Below are positions 798 through 16,849 of a stretch of 63,461 nucleotides of DNA, piece after piece. The notes under the pieces are model-generated. The model was not told where the DNA came from. It ran no database searches and saw nothing but the letters and a program-made list of their open reading frames with translations. The stretch covers positions 1 through 63,461 of IMG/VR virus record IMGVR_UViG_3300034092_001286, one strand, 5' to 3'. Made by a program: the position numbers and the translations under genes. Positions within the stretch are counted from its first letter, which is position 1; each line of letters begins with the position of its first letter. The DNA comes from a virus (taxonomy: Duplodnaviria > Caudoviricetes).

Positions 798-826
798 GGC
801 GTCAGTTGGGTGCATCAGTGACCCGC

Positions 827-989: not shown

Positions 990-1226
990 ATGAAGCTCAA
1001 TCAAGTAGGGTCGAACCGCACCATCCTCACACTTAACAACGGCACGCGGATCGGCTTCTCGTATGAGACGCCCGTCGTCGCAGAAGTTGATGGTGTGACG
1101 TACAAGACGGAAAAGAAATTCAGCGTGACCACCAGCAAGCACTGCGGTCAGTTGTTGTCGGAGATGGGCAGCTACGGTGCCCCCGAACTCAAGCCGCAGG
1201 AATTCTTCGAGGCGCTGCTGCCATGA
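990..1226 (+). CDS. hypothetical early protein
   Basis: RBS CAGGAG then ATG 990; FSYETPV..TTSKH motif recalls a common phage early protein. Confidence 0.75.
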   Translation: MKLNQVGSNRTILTLNNGTRIGFSYETPVVAEVDGVTYKTEKKFSVTTSKHCGQLLSEMGSYGAPELKPQEFFEALLP

Positions 1227-1459
1227 CCACCACCGTCCGTTACACCGGCCACGGCATCAATACAGGTGGCCTGCAAGGTCACAGCGTCGGTGCCGATTAT
1301 CCGTACATGATCATCGGTATCGCCGACCGGATCGAACAGCCGACCGAATGGCAGGTCATGGATTGCCGCACCAGCAACCGCAGCGAACGCTTCCCGACCT
1401 ACCAGCGCGCAGTGATTGAGATGACATCGCTGCGCACCCGCAACCTGATGCACTCTTAG
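1223..1459 (+). CDS. hypothetical protein
   Basis: ATGA overlap with the previous gene. Confidence 0.65.
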   Translation: MTTTVRYTGHGINTGGLQGHSVGADYPYMIIGIADRIEQPTEWQVMDCRTSNRSERFPTYQRAVIEMTSLRTRNLMHS

Positions 1460-1504
1460 AGTAGCAGCCATAGCCGCGTGACAGGCGGCTATACCGGCAA
1501 CTCT
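1458..1504 (+). ncRNA. GTGACAG-loop hairpin element, copy 1
   Basis: ATAGCCGC-GTGACAG-GCGGCTAT within an outer AGAGT/ACTCT stem; intergenic. Confidence 0.65.
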
Positions 1505-1546
1505 GCCGTAACCGTAGCGGGCGGATACCCCGCATAGGAAAAACAA

Positions 1547-2611
1547 ATGTCAACACTTACACAAGCAAGCAACCAATGGGCAACGCGCCCGGCCGACGAG
1601 CGTTTCATCAGCCTGATCGGCATGCAGGATCATTTCCAGCAACAGCGCCTGCTGTCCGGCGAAAAAGTCGTGTCGTCGCGCAAGCTGATTGCATCGCCGA
1701 CCGAAGACAACAAGGGGCTGCTGATCAACGGATATGCACCGACACACTGGTCATTCGGGCAACTGGCCCAACTGGCTGAAGCACCAGCCGGCTACCTGCG
1801 CACGCTGCCGAGCCCGGTCGCTGCGGATTGCATCAACTACGGCTTGCAGTTCAAGCGCAACATCGAAGATGTCGGTGTCCTGCTCTACAAGAACGGCAGC
1901 AGCGTCTTGAAGGCTGCCACTGGCCCGCGATATGGGCGCATCTGGAACGACGACATCACCCACTCGCTGGTTAATCACTTCGGCGATGGCGTGACCGGTG
2001 ACTTCCGGGTGCCGGGAGAATTCGGCAAACAGGTTGAAGTGACCAAAGAGAACACCACGCTGTTTGCTGGCGATCGCGACATGTTCGTGTTCCTCGCCGA
2101 CGAAGAGCACCGCATCGAACTACCCAATCGCCGCAACGGCAAATCCGGCAGTCTCGCTCGTGGCTTTTTCTTCTGGAACAGCGAGGTCGGCGCACAGACT
2201 TTCGGCATGGCGAGCTTCCTCTTCGATTACGTCTGCTGCAACCGCATCGTATGGGGCGCGCAGGAGTTTCAAGAGGTCCGCATCCGTCACACGGCCAGCG
2301 CACCGGACAAGTGGCTCGGCGAGGTCATGCCAGCCCTTGAAGCGTACAGCCGCAGCAGCACCGGCAGCGTCATCGCCGCGATCGAGGATGCCCGCAAGGA
2401 CAAGCTCGACGACAAGGTGAACGACTTCCTCGCGCAACGCTTCGGCAAGCGCATGGTCGATTCGCTGCAGGCCACGCACTACGCTGAAGAGGGTCGCCCG
2501 ATTGAGTCCCGTTGGGATGTCATCACCGCCGTTACCGCACAGGCCCGCAACGTCCAGCATCAGGACGCACGGGTTGAGCTTGAGCGGCAGGCCGGCGCGC
2601 TTCTGCAGTAA
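1547..2611 (+). CDS. DUF932-like protein
   Basis: 354 aa; HWSFGQLA..AP.GYL, DRDMFVFL, RGFFFWNSEVG, VCCN and IRHT motifs typical of DUF932. Confidence 0.7.
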   Translation: MSTLTQASNQWATRPADERFISLIGMQDHFQQQRLLSGEKVVSSRKLIASPTEDNKGLLINGYAPTHWSFGQLAQLAEAPAGYLRTLPSPVAADCINYGLQFKRNIEDVGVLLYKNGSSVLKAATGPRYGRIWNDDITHSLVNHFGDGVTGDFRVPGEFGKQVEVTKENTTLFAGDRDMFVFLADEEHRIELPNRRNGKSGSLARGFFFWNSEVGAQTFGMASFLFDYVCCNRIVWGAQEFQEVRIRHTASAPDKWLGEVMPALEAYSRSSTGSVIAAIEDARKDKLDDKVNDFLAQRFGKRMVDSLQATHYAEEGRPIESRWDVITAVTAQARNVQHQDARVELERQAGALLQ

Positions 2612-2656
2612 GTGACTCAGTACAGCCGCGTGACAGGCGGCTGTCATGTACTCACT
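2611..2656 (+). ncRNA. GTGACAG-loop hairpin element, copy 2
   Basis: AGTGA-CTCAGT-ACAGCCGC-GTGACAG-GCGGCTGT-CATGTAC-TCACT between a stop codon and an RBS. Confidence 0.7.
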
Positions 2657-2673
2657 CACAGGAGGTAACAGCA

Positions 2674-3015
2674 ATGACAGACATCAACATCACCCGCTTC
2701 TACAACGAAGCCGCGCCGATGGACTACAGCGCGAGCGTCATGGAGATCGGCCAGAACGCCGGCCGCGACACATGGCGCGCAGCAATGGAAGACGCGCCCG
2801 ATTACGACCTGCTGAACAACGACGATGATCGCGAAGAGTTCCGCGCGCACGTCAAAGGTTTCGGCGCATGGTCTGACGAAGAAATTGCCGCATGGTCCGA
2901 CACGGAATTGAACGCACTGTTCATGCAACTGATCAGCGGTGACATCCGGTCAGGCGAGACAGATCGCATCTGGACCGACGAAGCAGGACAAACCTTTTAC
3001 TCAATAGGAGATTGA
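2674..3015 (+). CDS. hypothetical acidic protein
   Basis: Strong RBS AGGAGG; 113 aa. Confidence 0.75.
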   Translation: MTDINITRFYNEAAPMDYSASVMEIGQNAGRDTWRAAMEDAPDYDLLNNDDDREEFRAHVKGFGAWSDEEIAAWSDTELNALFMQLISGDIRSGETDRIWTDEAGQTFYSIGD

Positions 3016-3019
3016 CACC

Positions 3020-3262
3020 ATGAAAACCTTTCTCGCAAACCTGCAGCACGCCGCACGCACAGTAGAGCACACCCGCATCGGCGGCGGCATCTTCTCGCCG
3101 GCTGAATGTCAGCAAATTGTCACCCTGCTCCGCGACATGCAGGAAACGCTGGCGGCAATGGCATTCACCGTCGAAACCGTCGCGCACCTGCGCGGCATGG
3201 AGCAAGAACTACTGCCGGTCGCCGACAAGGCACGGGCGTTACTAACCAGAATGGAGGCATGA
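3020..3262 (+). CDS. hypothetical protein
   Basis: RBS AGGAG; tightly packed operon. Confidence 0.7.
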   Translation: MKTFLANLQHAARTVEHTRIGGGIFSPAECQQIVTLLRDMQETLAAMAFTVETVAHLRGMEQELLPVADKARALLTRMEA

Positions 3263-3681
3263 CAACCATGTACAAAATTGAAGTCACCGCAGCCGAAGCG
3301 CCGCGCCTGCTCGACTGGCTGACCAATCGCGGCGGCGTCGCGATATGGGAGTCGCTCGGTCTGTCCCGTGCAGGCGAACGTACCTTTACACCAGCCGATG
3401 CAGACCGCCCCGGCTGGCACTACTCTCAGAAGCCCGTCGAGATTGTCACCGACCGTGCCGACATCGGCGTCTATACCGAAACGCTCTACAAAGCGTTTGC
3501 TGTCGGCCTGCGCCGGTCCGGCATGACCCTGAAGCTGTCGGACGCAGCACAGCGCAAGCTGACGGCCACGATGGACGCCTGTATAGCCAAGCACGGCAAC
3601 GCGCACCATCGCAAAGGCGTTCTGGAAGACAAGGCAGCCAGCGTCGGCGTGTATTATGCCAGCGAGGTACAACCGCTATGA
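3259..3681 (+). CDS. hypothetical protein
   Basis: GGAGG RBS; ATGA overlap. Confidence 0.7.
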   Translation: MTTMYKIEVTAAEAPRLLDWLTNRGGVAIWESLGLSRAGERTFTPADADRPGWHYSQKPVEIVTDRADIGVYTETLYKAFAVGLRRSGMTLKLSDAAQRKLTATMDACIAKHGNAHHRKGVLEDKAASVGVYYASEVQPL

Positions 3682-3953
3682 CCAGCCGTATCATCAAGTA
3701 CCGTCTCGATCCGGTCAGACGCCAGACGATCGAGGTACCGGCCGGATCGTTCGTCTCGCACGTCCATGAGCAGGACGGCGCGGCAACGCTCTGGCTGATA
3801 CGCCCATCAGGCATGCTGCTGCTGCACAAGTGGCAGGTCACCTGTCTCTCGACGGGTGACAGCATTCCAGACGACGCGGGCCGCTATGTCGGCACCGCAC
3901 ACATCCACAGCGGCCGGACGGTCGTCCATGTTTTTGTAAAGGAGCCTACATAA
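3678..3953 (+). CDS. conserved phage hypothetical protein
   Basis: ATGA overlap; IIKY.L..Q...LW..TG..IP..YVGT..VVHVF pattern common in phages. Confidence 0.7.
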   Translation: MTSRIIKYRLDPVRRQTIEVPAGSFVSHVHEQDGAATLWLIRPSGMLLLHKWQVTCLSTGDSIPDDAGRYVGTAHIHSGRTVVHVFVKEPT

Positions 3954-4429
3954 TGCTGTTCAGATCACAAATCACACCAAAAGGCAACAGCAGCTACAGC
4001 TACGCATCACAGGCCGAAGCTGACGCACGCGCAGCAGCACTTGATACGAATAACTGCTCGGACTGCTCGCGCTGCTCTGTCTGCTCGGAATGCTCGCGCT
4101 GCTCGGAATGCTCGGACTGCTCGCGCTGCTCTGTCTGCGTGGAATGCTCGGACTGCTCGGACTGCTCGCGCTGCTCTGTCTGCTCGGAATGCTCGCGCTG
4201 CTCGGAATGCTCGGACTGCTCGGGTGAAGTCATTCAAGCCGGACGCCCGAACGGATGGTCATGCTACGGATGGTTGAAAGACGGCGCACTCTTTATCCAC
4301 TGCGGGTGCCGTCGTAAGACGTTCGCCGAAGCTGTCGAATACTGGTCGAACAAACCTGACCGGCTCGAAGTCTTGATGGCGTGTTACTACATCGCGTCCG
4401 TCGCACATTCCCGTGGATGGCCGACCTGA
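3953..4429 (+). CDS. Cys-rich (CSx)n repeat protein
   Basis: 19 Cys in tripeptide repeats followed by a small IHCGC domain. Confidence 0.75.
   Translation: MLFRSQITPKGNSSYSYASQAEADARAAALDTNNCSDCSRCSVCSECSRCSECSDCSRCSVCVECSDCSDCSRCSVCSECSRCSECSDCSGEVIQAGRPNGWSCYGWLKDGALFIHCGCRRKTFAEAVEYWSNKPDRLEVLMACYYIASVAHSRGWPT
4055..4222 (+). repeat. 9-bp coding tandem repeat including an exact 69-bp duplication
   Basis: TGCTCGnnn units; 4055-4123 is identical to 4154-4222. Confidence 0.95.
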
Positions 4430-4974
4430 TGCAGCCCATCACCCACAGCGATCTGATGGTGCTGATCGATACCGACATGCAGGAAATGCTGCAGTCGGTC
4501 ATTGACGAACCGACAACGCACGGCATCATCGTTCTCGATAATACCGTCTTCATTCCCTACGGGCCTAGCCATCCCTGCAAAGCACCGGCTGACGCAACGA
4601 ATGCCATGCCGCCCGCCACCTACTTCTACGTAAAGGAAAACTGCAATGGAAATCACAATCAAGATCGAACGCAAGTACGGCCGCACGCTGATCTACCCGA
4701 TCTGCCCGAAGGCGATACTGTTCGCCAAGCTGTGCCGGCAGGAAACGCTGACGCCGGGACAGATCGACGATATCAAGGCGCTCGGCTACACGGTGCGGGT
4801 CCAGCAGTTACCAGCAACCTTGTGAGCGAGGCAGAATGGGTCGATCGACTGACCCTGTTCTGCCCGCTCATCTGTTTCATCTCGTCGTCAGGTCTTCTGC
4901 TCTTTTCCGACCAGTACGGCATCGTCCGGGGTGCCTACCGTCCGATCGATGGGACGCACTACCTCACCCCCTAG
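4429..4974 (+). CDS. hypothetical protein (contains a nested out-of-frame gene)
   Basis: TGATG coupling with the upstream stop; frame open to 4974. Confidence 0.5.
   Translation: MQPITHSDLMVLIDTDMQEMLQSVIDEPTTHGIIVLDNTVFIPYGPSHPCKAPADATNAMPPATYFYVKENCNGNHNQDRTQVRPHADLPDLPEGDTVRQAVPAGNADAGTDRRYQGARLHGAGPAVTSNLVSEAEWVDRLTLFCPLICFISSSGLLLFSDQYGIVRGAYRPIDGTHYLTP
4646..4825 (+). CDS. small phage protein (59 aa, absent from the ORF track)
   Basis: AAGGA RBS; MEITIKIERKYGRTLIYPICPKAILFAKLCRQETLTPGQIDDIKALGYTV.. resembles a widespread phage family. Confidence 0.75.
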   Translation: MEITIKIERKYGRTLIYPICPKAILFAKLCRQETLTPGQIDDIKALGYTVRVQQLPATL

Positions 4975-5220
4975 CACCACATCCAAACCCTCCTCAATGG
5001 CCTTGAGCACCGATTCATGGACGAGCTTCGGCTCCCCTCCCTGATCGATGATCAAGGCCATTCCTTTTTGTGCCGCCGCGATCTGTGCAACTTCTCCGAT
5101 CCGACATGCAAACCGTACCGCCTCTTCGATCTGCATCTCGATCGTAACCTTTGCATCCGGTAGATCGAAGGCGATGTTGCCACCCTCGGTGACGCGAATA
5201 CCAATCCCACTCATGGTCAT
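4888..5220 (-). CDS. hypothetical protein
   Basis: AAGGAG RBS; overlaps the stop of the 5217-5837 gene. Confidence 0.6.
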   Translation of the reverse strand: MTMSGIGIRVTEGGNIAFDLPDAKVTIEMQIEEAVRFACRIGEVAQIAAAQKGMALIIDQGGEPKLVHESVLKAIEEGLDVVLGGEVVRPIDRTVGTPDDAVLVGKEQKT

Positions 5221-5837
5221 ACTCCTTGGTTAATGCGCGCAGCGGCTGCTGCACGCTCTTGCTCTAGCAACTGCCTGTCGGTCATCAGCGCAGCCTTGGT
5301 TGTCAGGCCGCGCCACACGCGCCCCTCTCGCACGTACCCACAGTCATCCAACACCCCGTTGAATTGTTGTTTGGAGATAGACCGCCCAAACCATTTGCAG
5401 AACGCAGCGTGCAAGTCCTTCGACGGGAGTCGAGCATAAGGATGAATCGTGCAATCAGCCGCGATCCAGTTTGTGATGCCGTCACGAACGGATGTGCCCT
5501 TGATCAGCAAACCATACCAGTAACACCCGTCGTTACGTGTCTTGCGAAGGAACCCTCGCGCGGTCAGCGCACGCCCGAATGTTTGCTTCGACAACGACGA
5601 GCCACTCCACGAAATGTAGTTGTCGTAAAGCTCGGCAGCCAACACTGCTTCCCCCGGCTGCCGATTACACCGATCTGTGATCCATTGATCGATACCGGCC
5701 GTATCTACGACAGGGGCAACTTCCTGCAACGTCTTTATCGCCGATCGCAGAACATACCGAAGGACATCACGGGATGCACCAGCACCTATCGCTTGCTGTA
5801 CTGCATTTTCGATTATCGCTTTTACGATCTGTTCCAT
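5217..5837 (-). CDS. tandem winged-helix protein similar to the primase C-terminal domain
   Basis: Two repeats I..WI...C...LY..Y/F..W....SKQ.F...L...G.....W.GL, matching the C-terminus of the 6086-8419 product. Confidence 0.7.
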   Translation of the reverse strand: MEQIVKAIIENAVQQAIGAGASRDVLRYVLRSAIKTLQEVAPVVDTAGIDQWITDRCNRQPGEAVLAAELYDNYISWSGSSLSKQTFGRALTARGFLRKTRNDGCYWYGLLIKGTSVRDGITNWIAADCTIHPYARLPSKDLHAAFCKWFGRSISKQQFNGVLDDCGYVREGRVWRGLTTKAALMTDRQLLEQERAAAAARINQGV

Positions 5838-6088
5838 GTTCTATATCTCCTGACAGATTATGACTGATTAAAATATGCTAAATAACTTCTATCATTTTTG
5901 AAGTAACTGATTCTATTAACTTTATGATAGATACTGACCGATTGACAGCAATTTCAAAGACTTTTCCCTAGTAAGACAAGATAGTTATATATTGTACAAG
6001 AATATAAAACCATAAATAACTATCTTGCTTTTCTAAGAAGACTTCTTGGAAACAGCCAAAAATCGGTCATCGTCAGTCATATCTGTCA
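5838..6088. other. putative replication origin
   Basis: Most AT-rich non-coding stretch, directly downstream of the primase-helicase, bounded by inverted repeats TGACAGAT(T)ATGACTGA (5851-5867 / 6073-6088). Confidence 0.6.
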
Positions 6089-8419
6089 TGCACGAACCGC
6101 TAGACCCGTTCGCATCGATCCATGCATCGTATGCATCTTCTTTAACCCTCGATCCGACAATCGACGACCGAACGATTGTGCTGTAAGTGGATTCTTGTAT
6201 CCGTTCTTTTCCGCCCAATCGCGATACGATGCGTACAGGAGCGATCCCATCGAAGATGCATCCGATCGTTCAACGCATCTTTCGATAATCCACTGCCCGA
6301 TCACATCCATCTCTTTACGATACTCATCTGTAGCTTCAACGATCGCTTCTGGAACTTCACCCAATCCGATCCGCTGCCATTCCATGCAACCTTCCAGCAT
6401 CCACGCAAGGATGTGCTCCGCTTCGTCACCGAAGCGATCCTTGAGAGTCTTGTCTGGATCATGGAAGATGCGCAGGAAGGGCACGAGCTTGATCCGTGAC
6501 CAGATGCCGTGGTCTGTGTTACGAATAACAGGTTTATGGTTGCCGAGCATGTTGATCTTGAACTGCGGCAGGAACGTCACAGGGTCTTTGTACAGGCCGC
6601 GTGCAGTGATGTGGTCACCACCGGTCATGGTCTTGATCAGCGCCTCATCCACGGTGGCGTCGGTCGTTTCTGACGACAATATGAACCGCGCGCCTTGCAG
6701 CTTGAACAGGTCCGGCGACGCCGCCCCACCCCCTGCCGCCGACTCTTGGAACGTCTTTTTATCAACAGTTGCAGCGTACTCACCGAGCACGGTGGCGACA
6801 GACTCGAACATGGTCCCTTTACCATTCCGCCCCATGCCGTAAGCGAAGACCAGAACCTCCTCTCTGGTGTTGCCAGTCAGGCAGTAACCAAACCACCGCT
6901 GCATCCACCGCACCAGCGCTTGGTCACCACCAAACACTTCCGACACAAACGACAGCCACCGATTGCTGCCGTCGGCGCGACCCACACCACTCACGCCAAG
7001 TGATTTGGTAATGTAGTCATCAGGACGGGCCGCCCGTACAGCGCCTGTCCGCAAGTCCAATACCTTGCGTGCCCCATCCAGTCCGCAAAGCATCGGGTCT
7101 GTATCAAGCATTGACATTGACACGCAGATGTCTGAGTAAAGCGCAAGCATGGTGATGGTATTGGTAACTGTCCGCACCTCGGCGCACTTGCGTGCCCACT
7201 TGACATAGGTGGCTGACTCCATGATGTTGCCGGCTCCCTCCTGATATATGTCGGTAGCTAGGTTTGCCGCAAGCCGCTTGACACGGGAGCCCTTCGGGTC
7301 CGACAGCCACTGCCCATCATGCCAGTACAGCCAGCCGCCAGTCTCGATGATGTACCGTAAAACACCAGCATACTTATCATGCATGCGCATGGCATTACCG
7401 TCCTCGGTCAATGGTCTGGTACTGGCCGTGCCGTCACGTGCATCACGTACAGCCTGTGGCAGGTTCGGTACGGAGAATGGTAACGACACACCACTGGTAG
7501 CCACGGGGGCTGCTGGCACCGCAGGTAGTACCACCGCCCCGCCGTTAGGGGCTGGTGGCACTGCGTTACCAGCAAACGCCACGTCAGGCGACACACTCTT
7601 CCAGCCCGTCGGTACATACGACCGCATCGTCACGGCCACACGTCCCGTCCGACCAAACGTGCCCCACTCACGCTCCAGCACCTGCCTGCCCTCGTACTTC
7701 GGCCAGCACATGCTGTACGCATCCCACATCGTCAGGCCAGCCTCGCTGCCGCCTGTCTCGTGATGCAGCGCCATGCCGACGCGCAACCATTCAGACCGGC
7801 TAGACATCTGCTCCGGTTGCACCCGACGCAGCAGGTCGTGCATCTCGTCCTCACGTAGCCCCATCGGCGGCAGCGTATCGTCAGGCATACCGTCGCGCGT
7901 CGCACTGCCCACCATCCACTGCGGACAGGCTGCCAGTGCTGCATGTGTTACAGCACCGCCGTGTGCCGGCCACCAGATGATGTAGCCACCGTCACCGCGC
8001 CGATCGATACCGGCACCGAGCATGCCTGCGTCTGTCTTGGCCTCACCTGTATCAGGCAGTCGATACAGCAGGTGCTGCCCGCCCGTCAGCGTATGGTTGA
8101 TGCGAGTGACTGGCGGCTGTAACGGCTGCACCGTCACGCGGCCGTCAATCCCCTCGGCAGGCTTGACATCCAGATCGAGCACGTACAGTCCGCTCCGAGC
8201 GCCGGTCGGCACCGCCACCAGTGCGTCAGGCCACTGCTGCCACCACCCGAGTATGACAGCCAGATCGGTCGTCGCATAGACCTGCCAGCCTGCAATGCGT
8301 GGGCTCTTGTGGTATGGCCGGCCGTCAGGTCGTGCCCCGTGTCCCTCTGGATAGCAGGGGAATACAGGTATGCCACCGGCTGCGAGGCGCAACGCCTCGT
8401 CAATAGCAGCGGCCGTCAC
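6086..8419 (-). CDS. primase-polymerase / PriCT-2 / D5-P4-family SF3 helicase
   Basis: Prim-Pol (VFPC, VLDLDVK, T.TGGQHLLY), PriCT-2 (WLRVGMALH), D5_N, Walker A GMGRNGKGT, IKTMTGGD.ITARGLY. Confidence 0.92.
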   Translation of the reverse strand: MTAAAIDEALRLAAGGIPVFPCYPEGHGARPDGRPYHKSPRIAGWQVYATTDLAVILGWWQQWPDALVAVPTGARSGLYVLDLDVKPAEGIDGRVTVQPLQPPVTRINHTLTGGQHLLYRLPDTGEAKTDAGMLGAGIDRRGDGGYIIWWPAHGGAVTHAALAACPQWMVGSATRDGMPDDTLPPMGLREDEMHDLLRRVQPEQMSSRSEWLRVGMALHHETGGSEAGLTMWDAYSMCWPKYEGRQVLEREWGTFGRTGRVAVTMRSYVPTGWKSVSPDVAFAGNAVPPAPNGGAVVLPAVPAAPVATSGVSLPFSVPNLPQAVRDARDGTASTRPLTEDGNAMRMHDKYAGVLRYIIETGGWLYWHDGQWLSDPKGSRVKRLAANLATDIYQEGAGNIMESATYVKWARKCAEVRTVTNTITMLALYSDICVSMSMLDTDPMLCGLDGARKVLDLRTGAVRAARPDDYITKSLGVSGVGRADGSNRWLSFVSEVFGGDQALVRWMQRWFGYCLTGNTREEVLVFAYGMGRNGKGTMFESVATVLGEYAATVDKKTFQESAAGGGAASPDLFKLQGARFILSSETTDATVDEALIKTMTGGDHITARGLYKDPVTFLPQFKINMLGNHKPVIRNTDHGIWSRIKLVPFLRIFHDPDKTLKDRFGDEAEHILAWMLEGCMEWQRIGLGEVPEAIVEATDEYRKEMDVIGQWIIERCVERSDASSMGSLLYASYRDWAEKNGYKNPLTAQSFGRRLSDRGLKKMHTMHGSMRTGLAVRA

Positions 8420-8730
8420 TGAGCATTCAGCGATGCTGCTGCTGCCTCACGCAGTTTCAGCGGTGCGTTACGTGCGCGGCGGTCACCGTGGGCCAGACCT
8501 TGCGCTACTACACGGAGATTACTGGTGCGGATCGCTTCGCCCATGATGGCCCGTTGCATCTGCGGCATGGTGCCTAGCCAGTGCGACACGAGCGCCGGGC
8601 TGCAGGCAGCAGCCAGTGCCACCGCATCACGGGTCACGCGCAGGTAGCCGACAGTCTCAGCCAGTCGCAGCGCAGCAGACAAGATAGCCTGTCGTCGGTC
8701 GTCGGTGCGTGAGTGGCTCATAGTATGCAT
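8416..8730 (-). CDS. TetR-like HTH DNA-binding protein
   Basis: RRQAILSAALRLA...TRDAVA.AA.CSPALVSHW. Confidence 0.7.
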   Translation of the reverse strand: MHTMSHSRTDDRRQAILSAALRLAETVGYLRVTRDAVALAAACSPALVSHWLGTMPQMQRAIMGEAIRTSNLRVVAQGLAHGDRRARNAPLKLREAAAASLNAQ

Positions 8731-8736
8731 ACCATC

Positions 8737-9348: not shown

Positions 9349-9590
9349 CAGCACCGCTCCTCACAGAGTTCGGCGACCATGAGCGGTATGTGGCTATAGG
9401 TAGCGCCGACCTTGTCGAACCACTGGATCAGATAGACGAAGCACCAGTCGCTGCACATGCCGTGCGTATATATCGCCTGCAGTGAAACTAATACCGGTCG
9501 CGTGTCGTCTAGTCCGCACATGGTTCTGGTCAGTTCCAGCGCCACGACAAGTTCCGAGTATTGCTCCTGTGTGAGCGGTGTGCTGCTCAT
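9348..9590 (-). CDS. hypothetical protein
   Basis: Coupled start/stop overlaps on both sides. Confidence 0.6.
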   Translation of the reverse strand: MSSTPLTQEQYSELVVALELTRTMCGLDDTRPVLVSLQAIYTHGMCSDWCFVYLIQWFDKVGATYSHIPLMVAELCEERC

Positions 9591-9934
9591 GACCGTTCGT
9601 CATCCAGCAGTGCGGAGAGTTCGGCAGGATCGCTGATGCGGTTCCAATCGCCGCCGCCCCATTGCACTGAGACGGATACTCGCGGCGATTGTGCGGCGAC
9701 GTGCCGCAGCAGGCGCTTGTATCGTTTTGCGTTGGCGTCCTTCAGGGTGAATGCATTGTCTTGGGTGCGGTTGATTATTTCAACGGACATGCTGGCCAGC
9801 GCGTCGGGCTCGCCGACTGCGACAAGCAACGTATTGCCCTCGCCTTCTGGAAAGCCAAATGCGGCACTCGTCATGTCTTGTGCTTCCATAAGTCTGACAA
9901 AGGTGGCAATCTGTTCTTTCATATCGTTCGTCAT
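9587..9934 (-). CDS. hypothetical protein
   Basis: AGGAG RBS; ATGA overlaps. Confidence 0.65.
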   Translation of the reverse strand: MTNDMKEQIATFVRLMEAQDMTSAAFGFPEGEGNTLLVAVGEPDALASMSVEIINRTQDNAFTLKDANAKRYKRLLRHVAAQSPRVSVSVQWGGGDWNRISDPAELSALLDDERS

Positions 9935-10299
9935 ATCGTGTCGCTCCTGTTAGTGATGATTGCATAGCCACCGAGCGACAGCACGAGGTCGCGCCACCGG
10001 CACTGCGCGAGGTATCGCTCGTCACGGTCGCTCGGCTTCCAGTCGGGGTGTTTCACTTCGATGGACGTAAAGATGCCGAGCGTATGGCCGACATGTTCGG
10101 GCAGTATTAGCACGGGTCGTATACCAATCAGGTCCGCACTGGCAATCTGCCTGTTGAGTTGTGGGCTGTCGTTAGCTAGCCCGAACCGCACGGGCCTGCC
10201 GTTACGGTCGGGCAGGACTCCGCAGTTATTTCTCCATAGCCGCCAGCCACGCTGACTGGCGAGGAGTCGTATCTGTGCTTGTACTGACGACTCAGCCAT
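9931..10299 (-). CDS. VRR-NUC family nuclease
   Basis: E..VQ..I, LWRNN.G, ADLIG, SIEVK, Q..W...V...GG. Confidence 0.85.
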   Translation of the reverse strand: MAESSVQAQIRLLASQRGWRLWRNNCGVLPDRNGRPVRFGLANDSPQLNRQIASADLIGIRPVLILPEHVGHTLGIFTSIEVKHPDWKPSDRDERYLAQCRWRDLVLSLGGYAIITNRSDTI

Positions 10300-10666
10300 G
10301 ACACACCCCGTTACGCCTGTCAGTATTTTCCAGCGGTGTCAGCACCTGCAGATGATCGGGATTTACACACGCAGGACGACAGCATTTGTGATCGATCTCC
10401 ATGCCGTCAGGTATCGGACGATGATTCGCTAGTGTCCAGAACACGTGATGCGCATAGACCTTGTAGCCTGTCGATACCGACACGCGCCGATAACCCTTGA
10501 GCGTACCGCCGCCAGTATGACGGTACAGGATGCAGCCTGTCGCTACGTCACGATAGACTGCAGCGGACAGTCTGGCTATCAGTCGTTCTTTGTCCTTGCG
10601 TATCATCTGCACCAGCCATGCGTAAATAATCTGGCCGTTGTAGGCACCGCGTCTGCGTGCGGTCAT
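10292..10666 (-). CDS. HNH homing endonuclease
   Basis: YAHH..W..IP.GMEIDHKC.RPACVNPDHL..T..EN. Confidence 0.85.
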   Translation of the reverse strand: MTARRRGAYNGQIIYAWLVQMIRKDKERLIARLSAAVYRDVATGCILYRHTGGGTLKGYRRVSVSTGYKVYAHHVFWTLANHRPIPDGMEIDHKCCRPACVNPDHLQVLTPLENTDRRNGVCHG

Positions 10667-12273
10667 TTGCTTATCCTCTCGATCAATGCAAGAGCTTCCG
10701 CCCTCGGTAACATCTGCGCCGACGCTACGTCAATGTCATAGCGCAGAAAAAACTCACGCTGCGCCTCGGCAATACTGATACCGCGTGCCGTCCGTGCGCC
10801 GCCCCACAATGCCATCTGTGCGCGCAGTGCGGTCTGTGCTTCCATCCTCTCGCGGTGCTCGCGCTGCTTGCGGCCGACGACCTCGGGACCGGCACCGACC
10901 GGGATCAGCAGCGCATCAGCGCGTGCAATCTCGCCACGCATGCGGGCCAGTACGTCGGGCGTCAGTTCGTTCAGGTCGCCATCCACAACATCAGGACTGC
11001 TGCGCCCGGCATACACGACAGGTGTCCCACAGTACGGGCAGACCACTTTGCTGCGCTCATACACACCAGCGCATTGCAGACAAGACCGAAGCGGGATTGG
11101 ACCTTCGCCCGGTGCGGTCTTGCTGCGCCGGTCGCGACGATCGAGCGTGAAGCTACGGGGTGCATCGGGCAGGCCGTGGAGTAGCACGTTGCCGACGTGA
11201 TCGATGATGATGCCGTGCGTCTTGCCGTTCAGGAGCCGCAGCGCGCGACCGAACTGTTGTATGTATAGAGCATAGCTCTGCGTCGGGCGGGCCATGCTAC
11301 AGACCTCGATGGCCGGGAGGTCGAAGCCCTCGCCGAACAGATCGACATTGACCAGTTGTTTCAGTTCGCCGCTGGCAAACATGCGCAGCAGCTTGTACCG
11401 GATGTTGTCAGGTGTCTTCGCCGATATCGCTTCGGCCGGTATGCCCTGCTGGCGATAGGCTGCAGCCAGTTCAACAGCACTCTCGACATCGACAGCGAAC
11501 GTAATACCGAGCTTACCGGCAGCGATCCGCATGTAGTGCGACACGACATCGCCGTGGATATGCGAGCGTCGTACTGCCTTGCGCAGCGGCTCGGGGCTGT
11601 AGTCACCGCCAGCACTGGTATTCACATCAGACAGATCGAGATCGTTCGGCGGTGCGAAAACACGATACTCGGTCAGGTAGCCGCCGTTGATCAGGTCGCG
11701 CATGCTCGGGCCGATGATCATCACGTCGATCACACCGTCATGGTGCCGACCGAGTCCCTTGCCGTCAGCACGGACAGGCGTGGCAGTCACGCCAAGGCCA
11801 AACGCATTGGGAAACATCTCGACGGTTCTGCCCCACTTGTTGCCGACAAGCAGGTGATGCGCTTCGTCACAGACCCATAGCCGCGTCTGATTGAACAGCG
11901 GGTCTTTCGCCGGATCGCGCCCCATGAGCGTATCGACGCCGGCAGCAGCGACAGATGCGGTAGCGTTGTAGAAACTGGTGCCAAGCTCTATGCCATGTAG
12001 CTGTACGCAGGAGCGGATCAGCGCGGGCTGGCCGATGATGCGGTGCCTGACGTTGTACCGTGCCAGTGCGAGACTGATCTGGCTGACCAGTTCGTGTCGG
12101 TGTGCGATAGCCACACTCGGCGCGATCATGCGGCGCTGGATGTTGGCGAAGGTGACCGTCTTGCCCGCGCCTGTCGGCAGTACTAGCAGCACGTTGCGTG
12201 CGCCGGCATGCCACGCTTCATAGATACGGCGCTCAGCTTCTTGCTGGTAGTCGCGGAGTATCGGTTCAGTCAC
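10663..12273 (-). CDS. SF2 DEAH-box helicase with C-terminal Zn finger
   Basis: LRDYQ, PTGAGKT, DEAHH, TATP, EGFDLP, QQFGRALR, CxxC..CPYC; GTG start at 12273. Confidence 0.93.
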   Translation of the reverse strand: MTEPILRDYQQEAERRIYEAWHAGARNVLLVLPTGAGKTVTFANIQRRMIAPSVAIAHRHELVSQISLALARYNVRHRIIGQPALIRSCVQLHGIELGTSFYNATASVAAAGVDTLMGRDPAKDPLFNQTRLWVCDEAHHLLVGNKWGRTVEMFPNAFGLGVTATPVRADGKGLGRHHDGVIDVMIIGPSMRDLINGGYLTEYRVFAPPNDLDLSDVNTSAGGDYSPEPLRKAVRRSHIHGDVVSHYMRIAAGKLGITFAVDVESAVELAAAYRQQGIPAEAISAKTPDNIRYKLLRMFASGELKQLVNVDLFGEGFDLPAIEVCSMARPTQSYALYIQQFGRALRLLNGKTHGIIIDHVGNVLLHGLPDAPRSFTLDRRDRRSKTAPGEGPIPLRSCLQCAGVYERSKVVCPYCGTPVVYAGRSSPDVVDGDLNELTPDVLARMRGEIARADALLIPVGAGPEVVGRKQREHRERMEAQTALRAQMALWGGARTARGISIAEAQREFFLRYDIDVASAQMLPRAEALALIERISK

Positions 12274-12608
12274 TCGCCGCCCGCCTCTTTGTGCGCCGCC
12301 TCGATGATCGGCTTGATAGCTATCGGCGACTCGCACCGTACCGTCAGCAGGATGGTGCCGGGTACCGGGCCTTTGGTTTGTGTGTAGGTGAGGCTGGCCG
12401 CATCAAGATGTTTCTTGAATATCGACAGTTTCCACGGCTCGATGACAATGCCGGCAACCCGCAGCACTGGCTTCATCTTCTGTTGATGATGCCGATCGCA
12501 CAGCACGCCACCGCCATTACTATGAGTACCAATCTGCGTGCAGCGTTTGCCGTCCCGCCGCTTGGCCGTGCATTGCACACGGTCTTCCTCGTAGCTGCCG
12601 TTACGCAT
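12270..12608 (-). CDS. hypothetical protein with Cys/His motif
   Basis: QCTA..DGKRC...LCDRH; GTGA overlap with the helicase. Confidence 0.65.
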   Translation of the reverse strand: MRNGSYEEDRVQCTAKRRDGKRCTQIGTHSNGGGVLCDRHHQQKMKPVLRVAGIVIEPWKLSIFKKHLDAASLTYTQTKGPVPGTILLTVRCESPIAIKPIIEAAHKEAGGE

Positions 12609-12703
12609 TATTTATATCCCCCTGACCTATTGACGAAGCCGTCAATGTACGATAATCTCCGTCGTGTTGCAACTGTTTTTTAACCCGTCACATGGAGAAT
12701 CAT

Positions 12704-13492
12704 ATGTCCCTTGAACAAGCACTGGCTGCCAATACGGCCGCTCTGCAAGCTCTTACCGCAGCACTGTCGTCCGGTACTGTCCTCCCTCATCCGGCACCGT
12801 CCGCACAACCGGCTCCGATCGTTGCCCCCTCTACTGTGGCTGTCGCTCCAGTGCCGACTGCCCCCGTGGCGACGCTGGATATTTCGCCCGCTCCGACGAC
12901 CGCATTCGCACAGCCTGCTCCGATCGCACCGGCACCGGTCACGACTGCTGCACCCCCTACGGCCAGCCCTGCGGCCAGCGTTGAGCGTGACGCAAAGGGT
13001 ATGCCGTGGGACGGTCGTATCCACGCATCCAGCAAGGCCAAGGTAGCTGACGGATCGTGGCGCTACAAGCGCGGCGTGGATGACACGACCATTGCTCCGA
13101 TCGAAGCTGAAATCCGTGCCGCTCTGACTGCACCTGTGCCGGTCGGAGGTTCCCCGGCGTTTGCCCCGCATCCGTTTTATGAGCCTGCCCCCGTGGTGGC
13201 TCCGCCGCAGGCCGCAGCAGTGGCCGCTATACCAGCCGCTCCCATCCCCGCCGCACCGGCCCCCGTGGTTGCACCCCCGCCTGCAGCCCCTGTGGCGGTT
13301 CCTGTCCCGCCTGTTACCGCCATAACCACATATGACACGTTGATGGCCGCGCTGCCGCCGAAGATCGTGTCTGGCGAACTGACTGCTGCTCAGATGCAGG
13401 AAGCGTGCGAACAGTACGGTGTGCCGAGCATTGCCGCACTGGCGCAGCGTCCCGATCTGGTGCCGTTCATCGCGGCAACGCTCAAGCTCTGA
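12704..13492 (+). CDS. Pro/Ala-rich protein
   Basis: GGAG RBS; low-complexity arms around a D..G.PWD.RIH..DGSWR.KRGV core. Confidence 0.8.
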   Translation: MSLEQALAANTAALQALTAALSSGTVLPHPAPSAQPAPIVAPSTVAVAPVPTAPVATLDISPAPTTAFAQPAPIAPAPVTTAAPPTASPAASVERDAKGMPWDGRIHASSKAKVADGSWRYKRGVDDTTIAPIEAEIRAALTAPVPVGGSPAFAPHPFYEPAPVVAPPQAAAVAAIPAAPIPAAPAPVVAPPPAAPVAVPVPPVTAITTYDTLMAALPPKIVSGELTAAQMQEACEQYGVPSIAALAQRPDLVPFIAATLKL

Positions 13493-13493
13493 C

Positions 13494-14624
13494 ATGAGCT
13501 ATCCAGCCCGAGAACATGCGCAACTGCCGCCAAGCAGTGCGCATTGTTGGGTCCGTTGCGCAGGGTGGCGGTCGCTTCATACCGCGTTCCCTGACAGCGG
13601 GGATACTGTGCCTGCAATGGAAGGCACGGCGGCACACTGGTGCTTCGAGCAGATGTTTGCCGGTGTCATACCGGAGGTCGGTGCGTCAGCGCCGAACGGT
13701 ATCCTCATCACTGACGAGATGCTTGACGGTGCGGAACTGTATGTTGATACGGTGCGCAGCATGGTGCCGGCCACTGGCGCGAGCACGTATGTCGAAGACC
13801 GAGTGTCGATGGCTACGACCGTGCATGACGCGAATTGGGGAACACCCGATACGTTCGCGATTGCACATGACCGCTCAGTAGTGTGGCTCTTCGACTACAA
13901 GTTCGGGCACCGCTACGTCGAAGAATTCGAGAACTGGCAATGCATCGATTATGTCGCTGGTATTTACGATGCGATGTTGCCTGTCGTTGCGTTGCCCGAC
14001 TCGACCGTCGTTCACATTACAATCTGTCAGCCTCGGGTCTTCAATCGCGGCCAGCCTGTCCGCACATGGACGACGACTATCGGTGCGCTCAAGCCGTACT
14101 GGCAGCAACTGGCTGCCGCCGCGCCGCTGGCAATGTGTGACGACGCGCCGTGCGTGCCGGGTGACTGGTGCGAGTTCTGCAACGGTAGGCATGCATGCGA
14201 GGCGCTGCAGCGCACAGCACTGGCCGCAACGGACGCAGCCTACAGCAGCATACCGCTGGTGCTACCGCCCCTTGCTGCGGCTCGGGAGCTACGGGCAATG
14301 CAACGGGCTGCGTCCATGCTCGAAGCGCGCGTCACGGGCCTGCAGCAGCAGTTGCTTGACCTGTGTCGGGCGGGTACCAACGTACCGTATTACAGCATCG
14401 AGCGGGCGCAGGGCAGGCAGCGTTGGACTCGTCCGATAGCGGAGGTCATTGCGCTCGGTCAGATGTTTGGACTGGACGTAAGCAAGCCCGGTGCGATCAC
14501 GCCGAAGCAGAGCGTAAAGCTCGGCGTGCCGGCCGGCGTCGTAGCGCAGATGTCGGACGAACCGCTCGGCGAATGGCGTCTGGTCGAAGCAACGACCGAC
14601 AAGGCGCGGAAAGTGTTTGGATAA
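13494..14624 (+). CDS. DUF2800 / Cas4-like PD-(D/E)XK exonuclease
   Basis: HA.L.PSSA..W..C, EGTAAH, GTPD, DYKFG, I.QPR, PG.WC.FC...C. Confidence 0.85.
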   Translation: MSYPAREHAQLPPSSAHCWVRCAGWRSLHTAFPDSGDTVPAMEGTAAHWCFEQMFAGVIPEVGASAPNGILITDEMLDGAELYVDTVRSMVPATGASTYVEDRVSMATTVHDANWGTPDTFAIAHDRSVVWLFDYKFGHRYVEEFENWQCIDYVAGIYDAMLPVVALPDSTVVHITICQPRVFNRGQPVRTWTTTIGALKPYWQQLAAAAPLAMCDDAPCVPGDWCEFCNGRHACEALQRTALAATDAAYSSIPLVLPPLAAARELRAMQRAASMLEARVTGLQQQLLDLCRAGTNVPYYSIERAQGRQRWTRPIAEVIALGQMFGLDVSKPGAITPKQSVKLGVPAGVVAQMSDEPLGEWRLVEATTDKARKVFG

Positions 14625-14639
14625 CCACAGGAGAACGAT

Positions 14640-14855
14640 ATGCATGAAGGTGACAAAGTGACGGCAGCACAGCAACTTGGCTGCTACAAAGAAAAAGACC
14701 CGATGTCGCAGCTGACGTGCGGCGAGAATTTGGAGCGCAAGATCGCCGAACAAACCGAACGGCTGATGATGCTCGAAGCGGCCAAGAAAGAAATGCAAGA
14801 TACGGGTCTTTACAACGTGAAGATTTCCACGCTGCGCGACACGATGTCGTGGTAA
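14640..14855 (+). CDS. hypothetical protein
   Basis: CAGGAG RBS. Confidence 0.7.
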   Translation: MHEGDKVTAAQQLGCYKEKDPMSQLTCGENLERKIAEQTERLMMLEAAKKEMQDTGLYNVKISTLRDTMSW

Positions 14856-14865
14856 CACGCAACGC

Positions 14866-14895
14866 TTGACAAACCCTAACGGTGTATGCCAACAT
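14866..14895 (+). promoter_or_regulatory. putative extended -10 sigma70 promoter
   Basis: TTGACA, 18 bp, TG-c-CAACAT; similar to 22145-22173. Confidence 0.45.
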
Positions 14896-14933
14896 ACGCC
14901 ACCGTAATATAACCACGTAAGGAGTAATACCGT

Positions 14934-15635
14934 ATGAGCAAGCCTTGCAAACGATGCGGCGGCACTGACAGATACCCTAGTGGTGGATGTAAGCGTTGCG
15001 TATCTGAGCAACGCAAGCTCTGGCAGCAAAACAATCCCGAACGAGTAAAGGAAACACTTGCTGCTTGGATTGCCAAAAAAGTTCCGTGCAAACGGTGCGG
15101 CGGAACAAAGCGCGGGGCGAACGGTACGTGCTCTGCGTGCGCCGCTGCCGATACTAAGCAGTGGAAAAAAGACAATCCAGAGAAGAACAAAGCTCACCGC
15201 AAGGCGTGGCATAAAAAGAATCCTGACAAACAGCGAGCGCGTACCAATAAGTATCACGCAGCACATCCTGAGAAACGGAAGGTAGTTGGCGAGCGTTATC
15301 GTGCCAACCATCCTGAGAAGGTGCGCGAGACTAGGCGTCGAGTTGTAGCTGCTTGGACAAAGGCCAATCCTGAAAAGGTGAAAGCTAACGCAGCGCGTCA
15401 CCGTGCCGGAAAGATTAAGGCCACCCCAACGTGGGCAAACAAATTCTTTATGGAGGAAGCATATGCGTTAGCTCTGTTACGTTCAGCCACGCTTGGATTT
15501 GATTGGCATGTCGATCATATCGTGCCACTTAATTCCAAGATCGTGTGCGGACTGCACGTCGAACACAATCTGCAAGTAATACCAGCGTTACATAACCTGA
15601 CCAAAAGCAATTTGATTTGGCCGGATCAACCGTAG
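14934..15635 (+). CDS. HNH homing endonuclease with Zn-finger N-terminus
   Basis: CKRC repeats; WHVDHIVPL..VCGLHV..NLQVI...NL.KSN; lower GC than the flanks. Confidence 0.88.
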   Translation: MSKPCKRCGGTDRYPSGGCKRCVSEQRKLWQQNNPERVKETLAAWIAKKVPCKRCGGTKRGANGTCSACAAADTKQWKKDNPEKNKAHRKAWHKKNPDKQRARTNKYHAAHPEKRKVVGERYRANHPEKVRETRRRVVAAWTKANPEKVKANAARHRAGKIKATPTWANKFFMEEAYALALLRSATLGFDWHVDHIVPLNSKIVCGLHVEHNLQVIPALHNLTKSNLIWPDQP

Positions 15636-15656
15636 TTACTTTTAGGAGAAATACAT

Positions 15657-16571
15657 ATGTCAATCAATTTGACGAGTCCTGTAGGGAGAATCGTCCAAGG
15701 CGAACTGTGGAAAGCACAGCCCGTTCTCGATCAGCGTACCAACCAGCCGAAGCTCGGCAGCGACAACCAGCCGCTCGTGCAGCACTTCTTTGCACTGGCA
15801 ATCCCCAAGACTCCCGGCCATACCCATTGGGCACAGACCGAATGGGGCCAGAAGATTTGGGCTGAAGGCAACCGTGCGCATCCGAACTTCGCGCCGCACC
15901 CGACGTTCTCATGGAAGATTGAGGATGGCGACTCGCAGGTGCCGAACAAGAAGGGCAAGAAAAACGCAGACCGCGAGGGCTTTCCGGGCAACTGGATTCT
16001 GAAGATGCGCTCGGGCTTTCCGCCCAAGACCTACAACGCCAACGGCAGCGAGATGGTTCCGGCCGAGTCGTTCAAACCGGGTCATTACGCGCAGGTCAAC
16101 ATCAACGTCGCCGGCAACACGGGTGATAGTCCCGGTGTGTATCTCAATCCGGTGATGGCAGCACTGGCTGGCTATGGCGTAGAGATTGTGAGCGGACCCG
16201 ACGTTGCCGAGGCCGGCTTCGGTCAAGGCGTCGCGCTGCCCGCTGGTGCGTCCGCTGTGCCGGTCGGTGGCTTTGCACCGCCCGCCGCAGCAGCACCGGT
16301 ACCGGGCCACCCTTTGGCCCCTGCCGCGCCTGCCTACGCCCCGCCCGTTGGTGCTCCTGCAGCACCGTACCCGCCTATTGGTGCGCCGGCTGCGAGCCCT
16401 TCTAGCCCTGTGGCTGCTCCGAATCCGGCATTCCTTGGCGTGCCCCCGCCCCCTCCCGCTGCACCGGTCCGTAACATGACCGCCAAGGCGGCAGGTGCCA
16501 GCTACGAGCAATTGATCGCAGCCGGCTGGACTGACGCAACGCTTCTCCAACATGGGATGATGACAGCATGA
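15657..16571 (+). CDS. ssb: single-stranded DNA-binding protein (DUF2815 / T7 gp2.5-like)
   Basis: KI.DGD, PG.Y..V.......GVYLN; located between exonuclease and polymerase; Pro/Ala-rich tail. Confidence 0.75.
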   Translation: MSINLTSPVGRIVQGELWKAQPVLDQRTNQPKLGSDNQPLVQHFFALAIPKTPGHTHWAQTEWGQKIWAEGNRAHPNFAPHPTFSWKIEDGDSQVPNKKGKKNADREGFPGNWILKMRSGFPPKTYNANGSEMVPAESFKPGHYAQVNINVAGNTGDSPGVYLNPVMAALAGYGVEIVSGPDVAEAGFGQGVALPAGASAVPVGGFAPPAAAAPVPGHPLAPAAPAYAPPVGAPAAPYPPIGAPAASPSSPVAAPNPAFLGVPPPPPAAPVRNMTAKAAGASYEQLIAAGWTDATLLQHGMMTA

Positions 16572-16789
16572 GCGCCTTCAACGACGGGACCGAAGCCCGC
16601 AAACTTCGGATGAAGCTCGGCCAGAACCAGACGCAATTCTGGTCGCGTGTCACCGTGCAGCAGTCCGCTGCCAGCCGGTACGAGACGGGGCGTGAAATCC
16701 CCGAGTCGGTGCAGGTGCTGCTGATGATGGCATACGGCACCGACAAGCAGGCCGCTGCTGCACTGGCGGGCCTGCGCAAGCAGCCGTAG
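16568..16789 (+). CDS. XRE-family HTH regulator
   Basis: LR.KLG.NQ..FW..V.V.QS..SRYETGR.IP..V. Confidence 0.85.
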   Translation: MSAFNDGTEARKLRMKLGQNQTQFWSRVTVQQSAASRYETGREIPESVQVLLMMAYGTDKQAAAALAGLRKQP

Positions 16790-16833
16790 TGACTCAGTGC
16801 TGCCGTGTGACAGACGGCAGCCATGTACTCACT
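16788..16833 (+). ncRNA. GTGACAG-loop hairpin element, copy 3
   Basis: AGTGA-CTCAGT-GCTGCCGT-GTGACAG-ACGGCAGC-CATGTAC-TCACT; compensatory changes relative to copy 2. Confidence 0.7.
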
Positions 16834-16849
16834 ACAGGAGACGTATAGC

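Follow-up and report, generated by a model that had tools for sequence, protein, structure and literature searches.

The window analysed here is a stretch of 63,461 nucleotides from a tailed virus (Duplodnaviria; Caudoviricetes; IMG/VR record IMGVR_UViG_3300034092_001286), and the record is a complete genome with terminal repeats. Its + strand carries three copies of a small hairpin with the loop GTGACAG, here called hp1, hp2 and hp3, each set between two genes (table 1). hp1 lies between a 78-aa open reading frame (ORF) and a DUF932 gene in a + strand operon, and hp2 between that DUF932 gene and a 113-aa acidic ORF; hp3 belongs to another + strand block, between a 73-aa RsaL-like helix-turn-helix (HTH) gene and a 63-aa ORF upstream of the DNA polymerase. 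An earlier note on this DNA had described a three-copy structured element, and on rereading all three copies were present with their 8-bp stems. hp2 and hp3 differ at three positions of the inner stem, each compensated, and share an identical internal loop (CTCAGT/CATGTAC) and outer stem (AGTGA/TCACT); every copy begins at a stop codon, hp2 and hp3 end just before a ribosome-binding site, and no T-run follows any of them, all as described. To this we add that hp1 has a 5-bp outer stem of its own, unlike that of hp2 and hp3 in sequence. The copies are real, then, but the motif is not limited to three: hp1-hp3 are members of a large unnamed family of phage intercistronic hairpins.

Table 1. Hairpins, junctions and other features of the window
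Feature	Position	Strand	Details
hp1	1458-1504	+	Outer stem AGAGT 1458-1462 / ACTCT 1500-1504
hp1 inner stem, 8 bp	1470-1477 / 1485-1492	+	ATAGCCGC / GCGGCTAT; loop GTGACAG 1478-1484
hp1 junction	1457-1459	+	hp1 starts inside this stop codon (TAG) of ORF 1223-1459
Companion hairpin	1517-1533	+	GCGGG / CGGATAC / CCCGC, between hp1 and DUF932 ATG 1547; read by eye
hp2	2611-2656	+	Outer stem AGTGA 2611-2615 / TCACT 2652-2656; internal loop CTCAGT/CATGTAC
hp2 inner stem	2622-2629 / 2637-2644	+	ACAGCCGC / GCGGCTGT; loop GTGACAG 2630-2636
hp2 junction		+	DUF932 stop TAA 2609-2611 upstream; AGGAGG 2660-2665 and ATG 2674 downstream
hp3	16788-16833	+	Outer stem and internal loop identical to hp2
hp3 inner stem	16799-16806 / 16814-16821	+	GCTGCCGT / ACGGCAGC; loop GTGACAG 16807-16813
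hp3 junction		+	Stop TAG 16787-16789 of 73-aa RsaL-like HTH gene (16568-16789); AGGAG 16836-16840, ATG 16850
Promoter-like site, sigma-70 type	769-797	+	TTGACA, 17 nt, TATAGT; 11/12 matches
boxA-like 12-mer	828-839		Exact match to the consensus; downstream of the promoter-like site
ORF with Cys-Ser-rich repeats	3953-4429	+	Long run of pentapeptide repeats (CSxCS type)
Endonuclease VII/HNH-like gene, first paralogue	14934-15635	+	Matches the same PHROG families as the second
Endonuclease VII/HNH-like gene, second paralogue	52317-53024	-	Matches the same PHROG families as the first
Family-A DNA polymerase, two ORFs	17250-18524 and 19202-20149	+	Interrupted by an HNH endonuclease gene
HNH endonuclease gene	18543-19220	+	Splits the DNA polymerase
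Polyvalent protein, 4379 aa	25186-38325	-	LPD38, ART-PolyVal (ADP-ribosyltransferase) and DarB-like parts

The heptamer GTGACAG is not itself enriched in the window (8 sites against 11.8 expected), and three of the eight sites, those of hp1-hp3, are closed by a stem. Predicted folds of hp2 and hp3 comprise 8 + 2 + 5-9 pairs with internal loops, those of hp1 fewer, with + strand z-scores against shuffles of -2.8, -2.5 and -3.4 for hp1, hp2 and hp3. In one freshwater metatranscriptome sample, whose contigs cover parts of 1249-3812 only, at a depth of 2-5, contigs span 1249-1468, 1706-2616 and 2667-2850; their ends adjoin hp1 and hp2 and no contig bridges either hairpin, a weak hint of processing or of strong structure, and such ends could also be reverse-transcriptase stops.

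Comparison with relatives indicates which parts of the element are kept. Twelve viral contigs encode the DUF932 protein, and six of them (L004-L007, L009 and L010) retain hp1 and/or hp2 with the same loop; hp1 orthologues with compensated stems occur in L004, L007, L009 and L010, and new compensated stems among the relatives include GCAGCCCC/GGGGCTGC and ACAGCCGG/CCGGCTGT. Across eight orthologous or paralogous copies (seven distinct), 98.2% of cells pair, five of the eight pairs change on both sides, and none of 500 shuffles matches this. A T·G pair in the L009 hairpin is a wobble on the + strand only. In L008 (genome G001, - strand) both orthologous hairpins, at 2903-2955 and 4083-4135, carry another, 8-nt loop, GGAACACG, on 10-bp stems that share two identical closing pairs, one of them U·G on the + strand, and are otherwise different. 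In more distant relatives unrelated hairpins occupy these intergenic slots, and at the hp3 site G002 has a different, longer hairpin together with an extra gene; a metagenome protein scan returned no further close relatives with the hairpin. Loss, swap and replacement among relatives thus mark the element as accessory and modular, located where gene content changes, and the hairpins mark junctions of gene-cassette exchange in lake phages. In the companion hairpin downstream of hp1, the loop CGGATAC, which includes the other Asp codon GAU followed by A and is not the full complement of any tRNA loop, is kept in L008 and L010 on a compensated stem, GCGAC/GTCGC.

Beyond these relatives, the motif recurs in phages with unrelated gene content. 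A 19-mer from the window matched 12 stretches in the genomes of 185,579 species (prokaryotic contigs), each a single match, and several of the matching contigs are phage-like, with the same layout of stop codon, hairpin, Shine-Dalgarno sequence (SD) and ATG; at one locus (L205) there is a further GTGACAG hairpin whose stem differs, beyond the reach of the search pattern. The phage-like loci share no proteins with the window, the sole tblastn match being a helicase-like stretch in L202. Two 17-mers, GCCGC-loop-GCGGC and its variant GCCCC-loop-GGGGC, returned 94 and 97 viral stretches, from uncultured phages, with a stem of at least 7 bp in 78/92 and 86/94 hairpins, respectively, the longest reaching 16 bp. 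The reversed-loop control gave 33 stretches with stems of 5, 6 and 7 bp in 16, 14 and 3 cases; these resemble Ala-rich coding sequence and none has a stem longer than 7 bp. Chance hairpins with a GTGACAG loop are rare (1 in 1.57 Mb of unrelated viral loci). The 97 hairpin loci amount to 40 nucleotide-level lineages. Among 117 hairpins, an ORF of at least 50 aa ends just upstream in 108, and an SD and start codon follow on the same strand within 150 nt in 89; the genes downstream form 47 clusters with no relation to one another, among them those of DNA polymerase, HNH, DUF932 and a PP-loop protein, along with numerous small unknown ORFs.

The alignment of 82 distinct 27-mers, from which L225 (a tRNA gene) was left out and in which seven bacterial-chromosome rows, possibly chance matches, were retained, indicates selection on the structure. 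Both partners vary at nine of the ten stem pairs, and covariation scores 0.451, compared with 0.138 in shuffled alignments (0/500 reaching the observed value), with slid controls at 0.10 or below. At the fifth pair from the loop-distal end of the 10-bp stem, among the positions left free by the search patterns, AU occurs 46 times, UA 24, GC 8, CG 2 and GU 2, with no unpaired case. All seven loop columns are invariant in the 82 rows, the loop having been fixed in most of the searches behind them. In the lower stem, the SD is often paired with the nucleotides that immediately follow the stop codon, and in some phages the ATG stands directly after the stem with no SD (e.g. L333 1641-1680), an arrangement in which the hairpin is built into the translational junction. 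In the T7-size clade that includes L333, L481 and L483, the polymerase ATG often stands directly at the 3' foot of a hairpin without an SD, and some of these hairpins are family members, others ordinary ones of terminator type with a U-tract; such a start suggests reinitiation or structure-guided initiation. A blastn search of 50,697 cultured-phage records with a family member of 66 nt gave no genuine match, and no paper containing the 17-mer was found.

What the first description overlooked is the complementarity of the loop, and of a second loop type, to tRNA. GTGACAG is the exact reverse complement, over all seven bases, of the anticodon loop of tRNA-Asp(GUC), and the centre of GUGACAG is the Asp codon GAC. 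Two matches of the pattern scan were in fact real tRNA-Asp(gtc) genes read backwards (L385 and L225), whose anticodon arm, with the loop CTGTCAC, is the reverse complement of the 17-mers. The second loop type came from an unbiased sample: starting from the DNA polymerase of a T7-size clade, the region upstream of the gene was read for the 80 nearest relatives of that protein. The GTGACAG hairpin occurs at 19 of these 80 loci, and at a few the same lower stem is topped by another module, whose loop reads TTATGAG. Its exact reverse complement, CTCATAA, is found as the anticodon loop in five of the six tRNA-Met genes in the loci examined. The TTATGAG module has five distinct sequences in the T7-size clade; outside it, the unrelated locus L238 also has one, flanked by a stop codon on one side and an SD/ATG on the other, with a GTGACAG hairpin some 470 nt away. 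The apical module has the size of an anticodon arm, about five G+C-rich pairs and a 7-nt loop. When 18 tRNA loops were compared with 6,007 distinct hairpins, intergenic family-like complements were obtained for Asp (65) and Met (5) only. The complement of the tRNA-Gly loop, TTGGAAG, was rejected, its four distinct hairpins (more at a looser cut) having weak stems and almost all belonging to one conserved coding region; a sense-strand mimic of the tRNA-Val(GAC) anticodon loop would fit GTGACAG and not TTATGAG. The predicted loop-loop duplex has an energy of -9.0 kcal/mol with Asp and -5.4 kcal/mol with Met. A second, independent exact match at 7/7 positions makes luck an unlikely explanation. 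In the parts of the literature accessible to us, we found nothing on such a motif under phage mRNA hairpins complementary to anticodon loops or tRNA sponges, and GUGACAG appeared only in unrelated primer and miRNA matches.

Several features favour the sense strand. Family hairpins are almost always oriented with the flanking genes; distinct hairpins of at least 8 bp number 46 with GTGACAG against 24 with CTGTCAC, and for the second loop type 5 with TTATGAG against 1 on the other strand. On the sense strand, G·T pairs outnumber A·C pairs by 82 to 27 (raw counts, related sequences included), and wobbles occur within the apical stem (in its apical 5 bp in L458 and L485, and also in L009). The gene-matched orientation, the counts of 8-bp hairpins and the excess of G·T over A·C together favour the sense strand, and to judge from these signatures hp1-hp3 would be sense-strand RNA hairpins in the early and replication-gene transcripts.

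The proposals of the earlier note are supported in part by this evidence. A selected structure is borne out by compensated stem changes around an invariant loop, no shuffle reaching the observed covariation in either the close copies or the wide family; an RNA nature is consistent with the G·U pairs favouring the sense strand; and the suspicion of an unnamed motif agrees with Rfam, which gave no match at gathering score in the window, in the 20-kb loci of two relatives or in 10 hairpin-bearing loci, and at E<=10 on 700-3100 just two chance matches to snoRNA models, away from hp1 and hp2. The idea of a boxB-like antiterminator is not supported. Lambda boxB is a GNRA-like pentaloop on a 5-bp stem, read by N. 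The family resembles lambda nut sites in its small size, its conserved loop, its place in early operons and its several copies in a genome, one of them after a small HTH gene, and in the loop having been switched at both sites in one relative; however, its loop has 7 nt, it spans unrelated phages, no boxA adjoins hp1-hp3 (the sole boxA-like word lies 640 nt from hp1 and at least as far from the other hairpins), and no arginine-rich small or N-like protein was recognised among the operon ORFs.

Likewise, the resemblance to other known systems is limited to single features, and the family lacks what defines a T-box Specifier loop, a boxB, a phage translational operator or a T7 RNase III site. 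Like a T-box leader, it presents a codon in an mRNA loop able to pair with one tRNA, in an untranslated stretch upstream of a gene; unlike it, the hairpin is phage-borne, measures about 23-45 nt, lacks the Stem I platform, the bulge for the tRNA 3' end and the terminator/antiterminator switch, has 7 rather than 3 or 4 complementary bases, and gives no Rfam T-box match. The operators of T4 gp43 and RegA are also loop-specific hairpins directly upstream of a ribosome-binding site, in one large family clade that of a DNA polymerase gene, but here the same hairpin precedes 47 unrelated gene clusters and no shared candidate repressor was found. With T7 RNase III sites the family shares intercistronic internal-loop hairpins between early genes, running from stop codon to ribosome-binding site without a U-tract; its helices are shorter and its apical loop invariant, and RNase III would not require an invariant apical loop. 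Recognition by pairing of the full 7-nt loop would recall ColE1 RNA I/II and the HIV-1 A-rich loop, whose partner is the anticodon loop of tRNA-Lys3, except that the partner would be a host tRNA at phage mRNA junctions, with neither replication primer nor reverse transcriptase. Intrinsic terminators do not apply, since no T-run follows the three copies and none of them appears in the terminator-like list of the window scan. A CRISPR repeat, solitary repeat or RNA anti-CRISPR was set aside, the 12 single matches of the 19-mer among the 185,579 species' genomes including none in an array, as was a REP- or MITE-like host repeat, the genome-contig matches all being single and the one in Caballeronia lying between convergent chromosomal genes. 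No GTTRRRY core of an integron attC site occurs in the printed flanks of hp1-hp3. Of a tRNA-like element only the anticodon arm is mirrored, on the opposite strand, and ARAGORN found no cloverleaf in the window.

Tentatively, we favour a model in which the element works as sense RNA: its loop would make a kissing contact with a host tRNA at the anticodon loop, and the hairpin would act on translation or stability at gene junctions. The loop would form a kissing complex with an abundant host tRNA; the bound tRNA would clamp or mark a hairpin whose lower stem joins the region of the stop codon to the downstream SD or start region; and the tRNA-bound hairpin would then set downstream translation, by coupling or de novo initiation, and/or shield the junction from nucleases. 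tRNA-Asp and initiator tRNA-Met are among the tRNAs that carry no bulky modification at position 37, so that pairing along the whole loop would be possible. In its wider form, which we hold just as tentatively, the model describes modular, horizontally spread 'anti-anticodon' hairpins of phages, each directed at one host tRNA (Asp, or Met, possibly the initiator) whose anticodon loop would pair in full with the 7-nt loop. The tRNA would be a ligand acting in trans, which either gates translation, coupling or decay at the junction or signals its own state (its level, modification or cleavage by a defence nuclease), a form of tRNA sensing without a T-box. If true, this would be a new viral use of host tRNA as a regulatory ligand for viral messages, through the smallest possible RNA element, and would tie phage gene expression, in a directly testable way, to how particular tRNAs fare, which is relevant now that cutting or depletion of specific tRNAs is known from many bacterial defences. 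Even with a protein reader, the family is a widespread, well-covarying phage RNA motif that has no name so far and merits one, together with a covariance model.

A number of observations weigh against tRNA kissing. Complementarity alone cannot separate binding of a tRNA from mimicry of a tRNA on the opposite strand, and the - strand folds about as well as the + strand (z-scores of -1.7, -3.6 and -3.8), so the window alone cannot fix the strand. The match to a single tRNA could be luck, at roughly 1 in 100 after allowing for both orientations, and many resemblances had been examined before it was noticed. As the loop was fixed in the search pattern for most of the wide sample, its invariance across lineages is partly built in, and the unbiased samples, namely the orthologous sites of close relatives and the 80 sites upstream of DNA polymerase, are small. 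The element is dispensable: L011 and L012 are without hp1 and without the inner hairpin of hp2, and the other 61 of the 80 polymerase loci have, among the alternatives, a direct stop/start overlap or ordinary U-tract hairpins. Finally, the loop GGAACACG of L008 matches the complement of no tRNA loop that could be tested, its duplex with the Asn loop having a predicted energy of only -1.9 kcal/mol, and the switch of loop at both sites is better explained by a co-evolving protein reader.

Such a reader, a phage or host RNA-binding protein that recognises the sequence of the apical stem-loop, as in boxB/N, coat-protein operators or the T4 gp43 and RegA operators, and represses or activates translation or antiterminates at the junction, is in our judgement a somewhat unlikely explanation of the family; the anticodon-loop match would then be chance, or the protein would bind codon-like or anticodon-like loops. 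The two L008 hairpins changed their apical part together, as expected of genome-specific co-evolution, the hairpin of the T7-size clade lies directly before the ribosome-binding site of the DNA polymerase, as does the T4 gp43 operator, and the HTH gene before hp3 is about 60% identical (by eye) in L017, a contig from the L008 sample, against 84% for the neighbouring single-stranded DNA-binding protein (SSB). Yet no protein cluster occurs in more than 6 of the 40 hairpin-bearing lineages, within the partial flanks examined, and the one present in six is terminase-like; this lack of a common protein family fits a host-borne partner. Two loops each complementary to a tRNA loop at 7/7 positions would also be unexpected. 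The only phyletic candidate, a 140-aa protein encoded at 3268-3681, is present in hairpin-bearing relatives and missing from the hairpin-less G005, and was rejected as reader: its 17 homologues are all unnamed, it belongs to no Pfam family, and its model (pLDDT 90.8 for the best of five, 71 to 40 for the other four) has no Foldseek match at E<=0.001, with a best VIA Z of 4.7, and so no match to a solved fold. More doubtful still is a purely structural hairpin at the junction: a site of processing, RNase III-type or other, a stabiliser of 3' ends, or a coupling hairpin that occludes the SD until translation of the upstream gene terminates, with a loop retained through descent or because it is stable. 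Counting the outer stem, the element has 17-19 pairs broken by an internal loop, the lower stem of many relatives pairs the post-stop region with the SD (e.g. in 14-16-bp stems), the SD-less ATG after the stem in L333 and the unrelated hairpins in the slots of distant relatives would suit such a role, and so would the ends of the metatranscriptome contigs at 1468 and 2616 and the start at 2667, from one low-depth sample. None of these functions, the RNase III site and the stabiliser included, needs an invariant 7-nt loop on a stem that varies at nine of its ten pairs, even if the loop was fixed in most searches; the exact complementarity of two loop types to tRNA would be left unaccounted for, and an inner helix of 8 bp is short for RNase III.

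Read from the opposite strand, the element would be a mimic of the anticodon arm (stem, CUGUCAC, stem; tRNA-Asp and tRNA-Met) and might serve an anticodon nuclease, a tRNA-guanine transglycosylase or DpdA-like enzyme, or a synthetase as decoy or substrate, which we consider improbable. Its reverse complement equals the tRNA-Asp anticodon arm letter for letter, including C32, U33, A37 and C38, it holds the U-G-U that a transglycosylase or DpdA-like enzyme would call for, and the swapped module is exactly of anticodon-arm size; but the mimic would be antisense to genes in every case seen, with no promoter for such an RNA in sight, and the sense-strand wobbles would become A·C mismatches, some of them in its 5-bp stem (L458 and L485). 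Least probable of all, to our mind, is a site acting at the DNA level, either the core of a recombination or integration site, with inverted arms around a 7-bp asymmetric spacer as in the anticodon-loop attachment sites of tRNA-targeting integrases, or a hairpin site at the borders of gene cassettes. The hairpins do lie where gene content varies, the same hairpin preceding a DNA polymerase, HNH or PP-loop gene, G002 has its other hairpin and extra gene at the hp3 site, and the flanks of hp2 and hp3 are shared with the ribosome-binding region of the first gene; nonetheless, arms that covary between copies in one genome are unexpected for protein-bound half-sites, G·T pairs are biased to the sense strand, and the window has no integrase in its ORF scans, no adjacent 3' half of a tRNA gene and no tRNA gene at all by ARAGORN.

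Three further readings were tried and dropped. An N4-like hairpin promoter is excluded, since no RNA polymerase gene was found in the ORF scans of the window and the giant ORF is the polyvalent protein; as far as these scans go, the phage appears to rely on the host RNA polymerase. A sigma-70 promoter with the loop as its -35 box would leave about 13 nt to any -10-like hexamer (by eye), relatives have the SD and ATG immediately afterwards, the loop of L008 does not resemble a -35 box, and the promoter scan gave none at the hairpins. A mini-ORF from the GTG of the loop to the next start codon was followed in 134 instances, where stops near the start fell in frame 0 versus frame 2 in 19 versus 18 cases; the pattern is neat in the three copies of the window, and the in-frame cases come from related lineages.

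In the genome around the hairpins, the small and large terminase, portal, and major head and tail genes are on the - strand, and the window holds a T7-style replication set of primase-helicase, helicase, exonuclease, gp2.5-like SSB and family-A polymerase. The polyvalent protein is probably an injected anti-defence protein, and the paralogous endonuclease VII/HNH-like genes may be mobile. The promoter-like site, conserved in three relatives, probably drives the + strand operon carrying hp1 and hp2; the boxA-like word, unlike this promoter, is not kept in G001 or G002. The ORF with CSxCS repeats is not present in these two relatives either. In database comparison the window gave only short, distant DNA matches. 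The phage is frequent in lake-water metagenomes: 24 runs are listed, from 22 studies, and 20 DNA runs contain at least half of the sampled words.

The 3' flank of hp2 and hp3, CTCAC..AGGAG (2651-2665 and 16828-16840), is also found at 971, in the ribosome-binding region of the first gene of the operon with hp1 and hp2, and recombination may take place at this repeated start-region cassette. In place of the leader of that operon, about 190 nt are found in G002 (L022 ~9900-10090) and G001 (L020 ~8300-8500, - strand) that are full of short hairpins with GCAA loops, for which Rfam gave no match; a CACC/GGTG stem there carries the loop GCAA in one genome and TTCG in the other, a swap that is the mark of a structured RNA.

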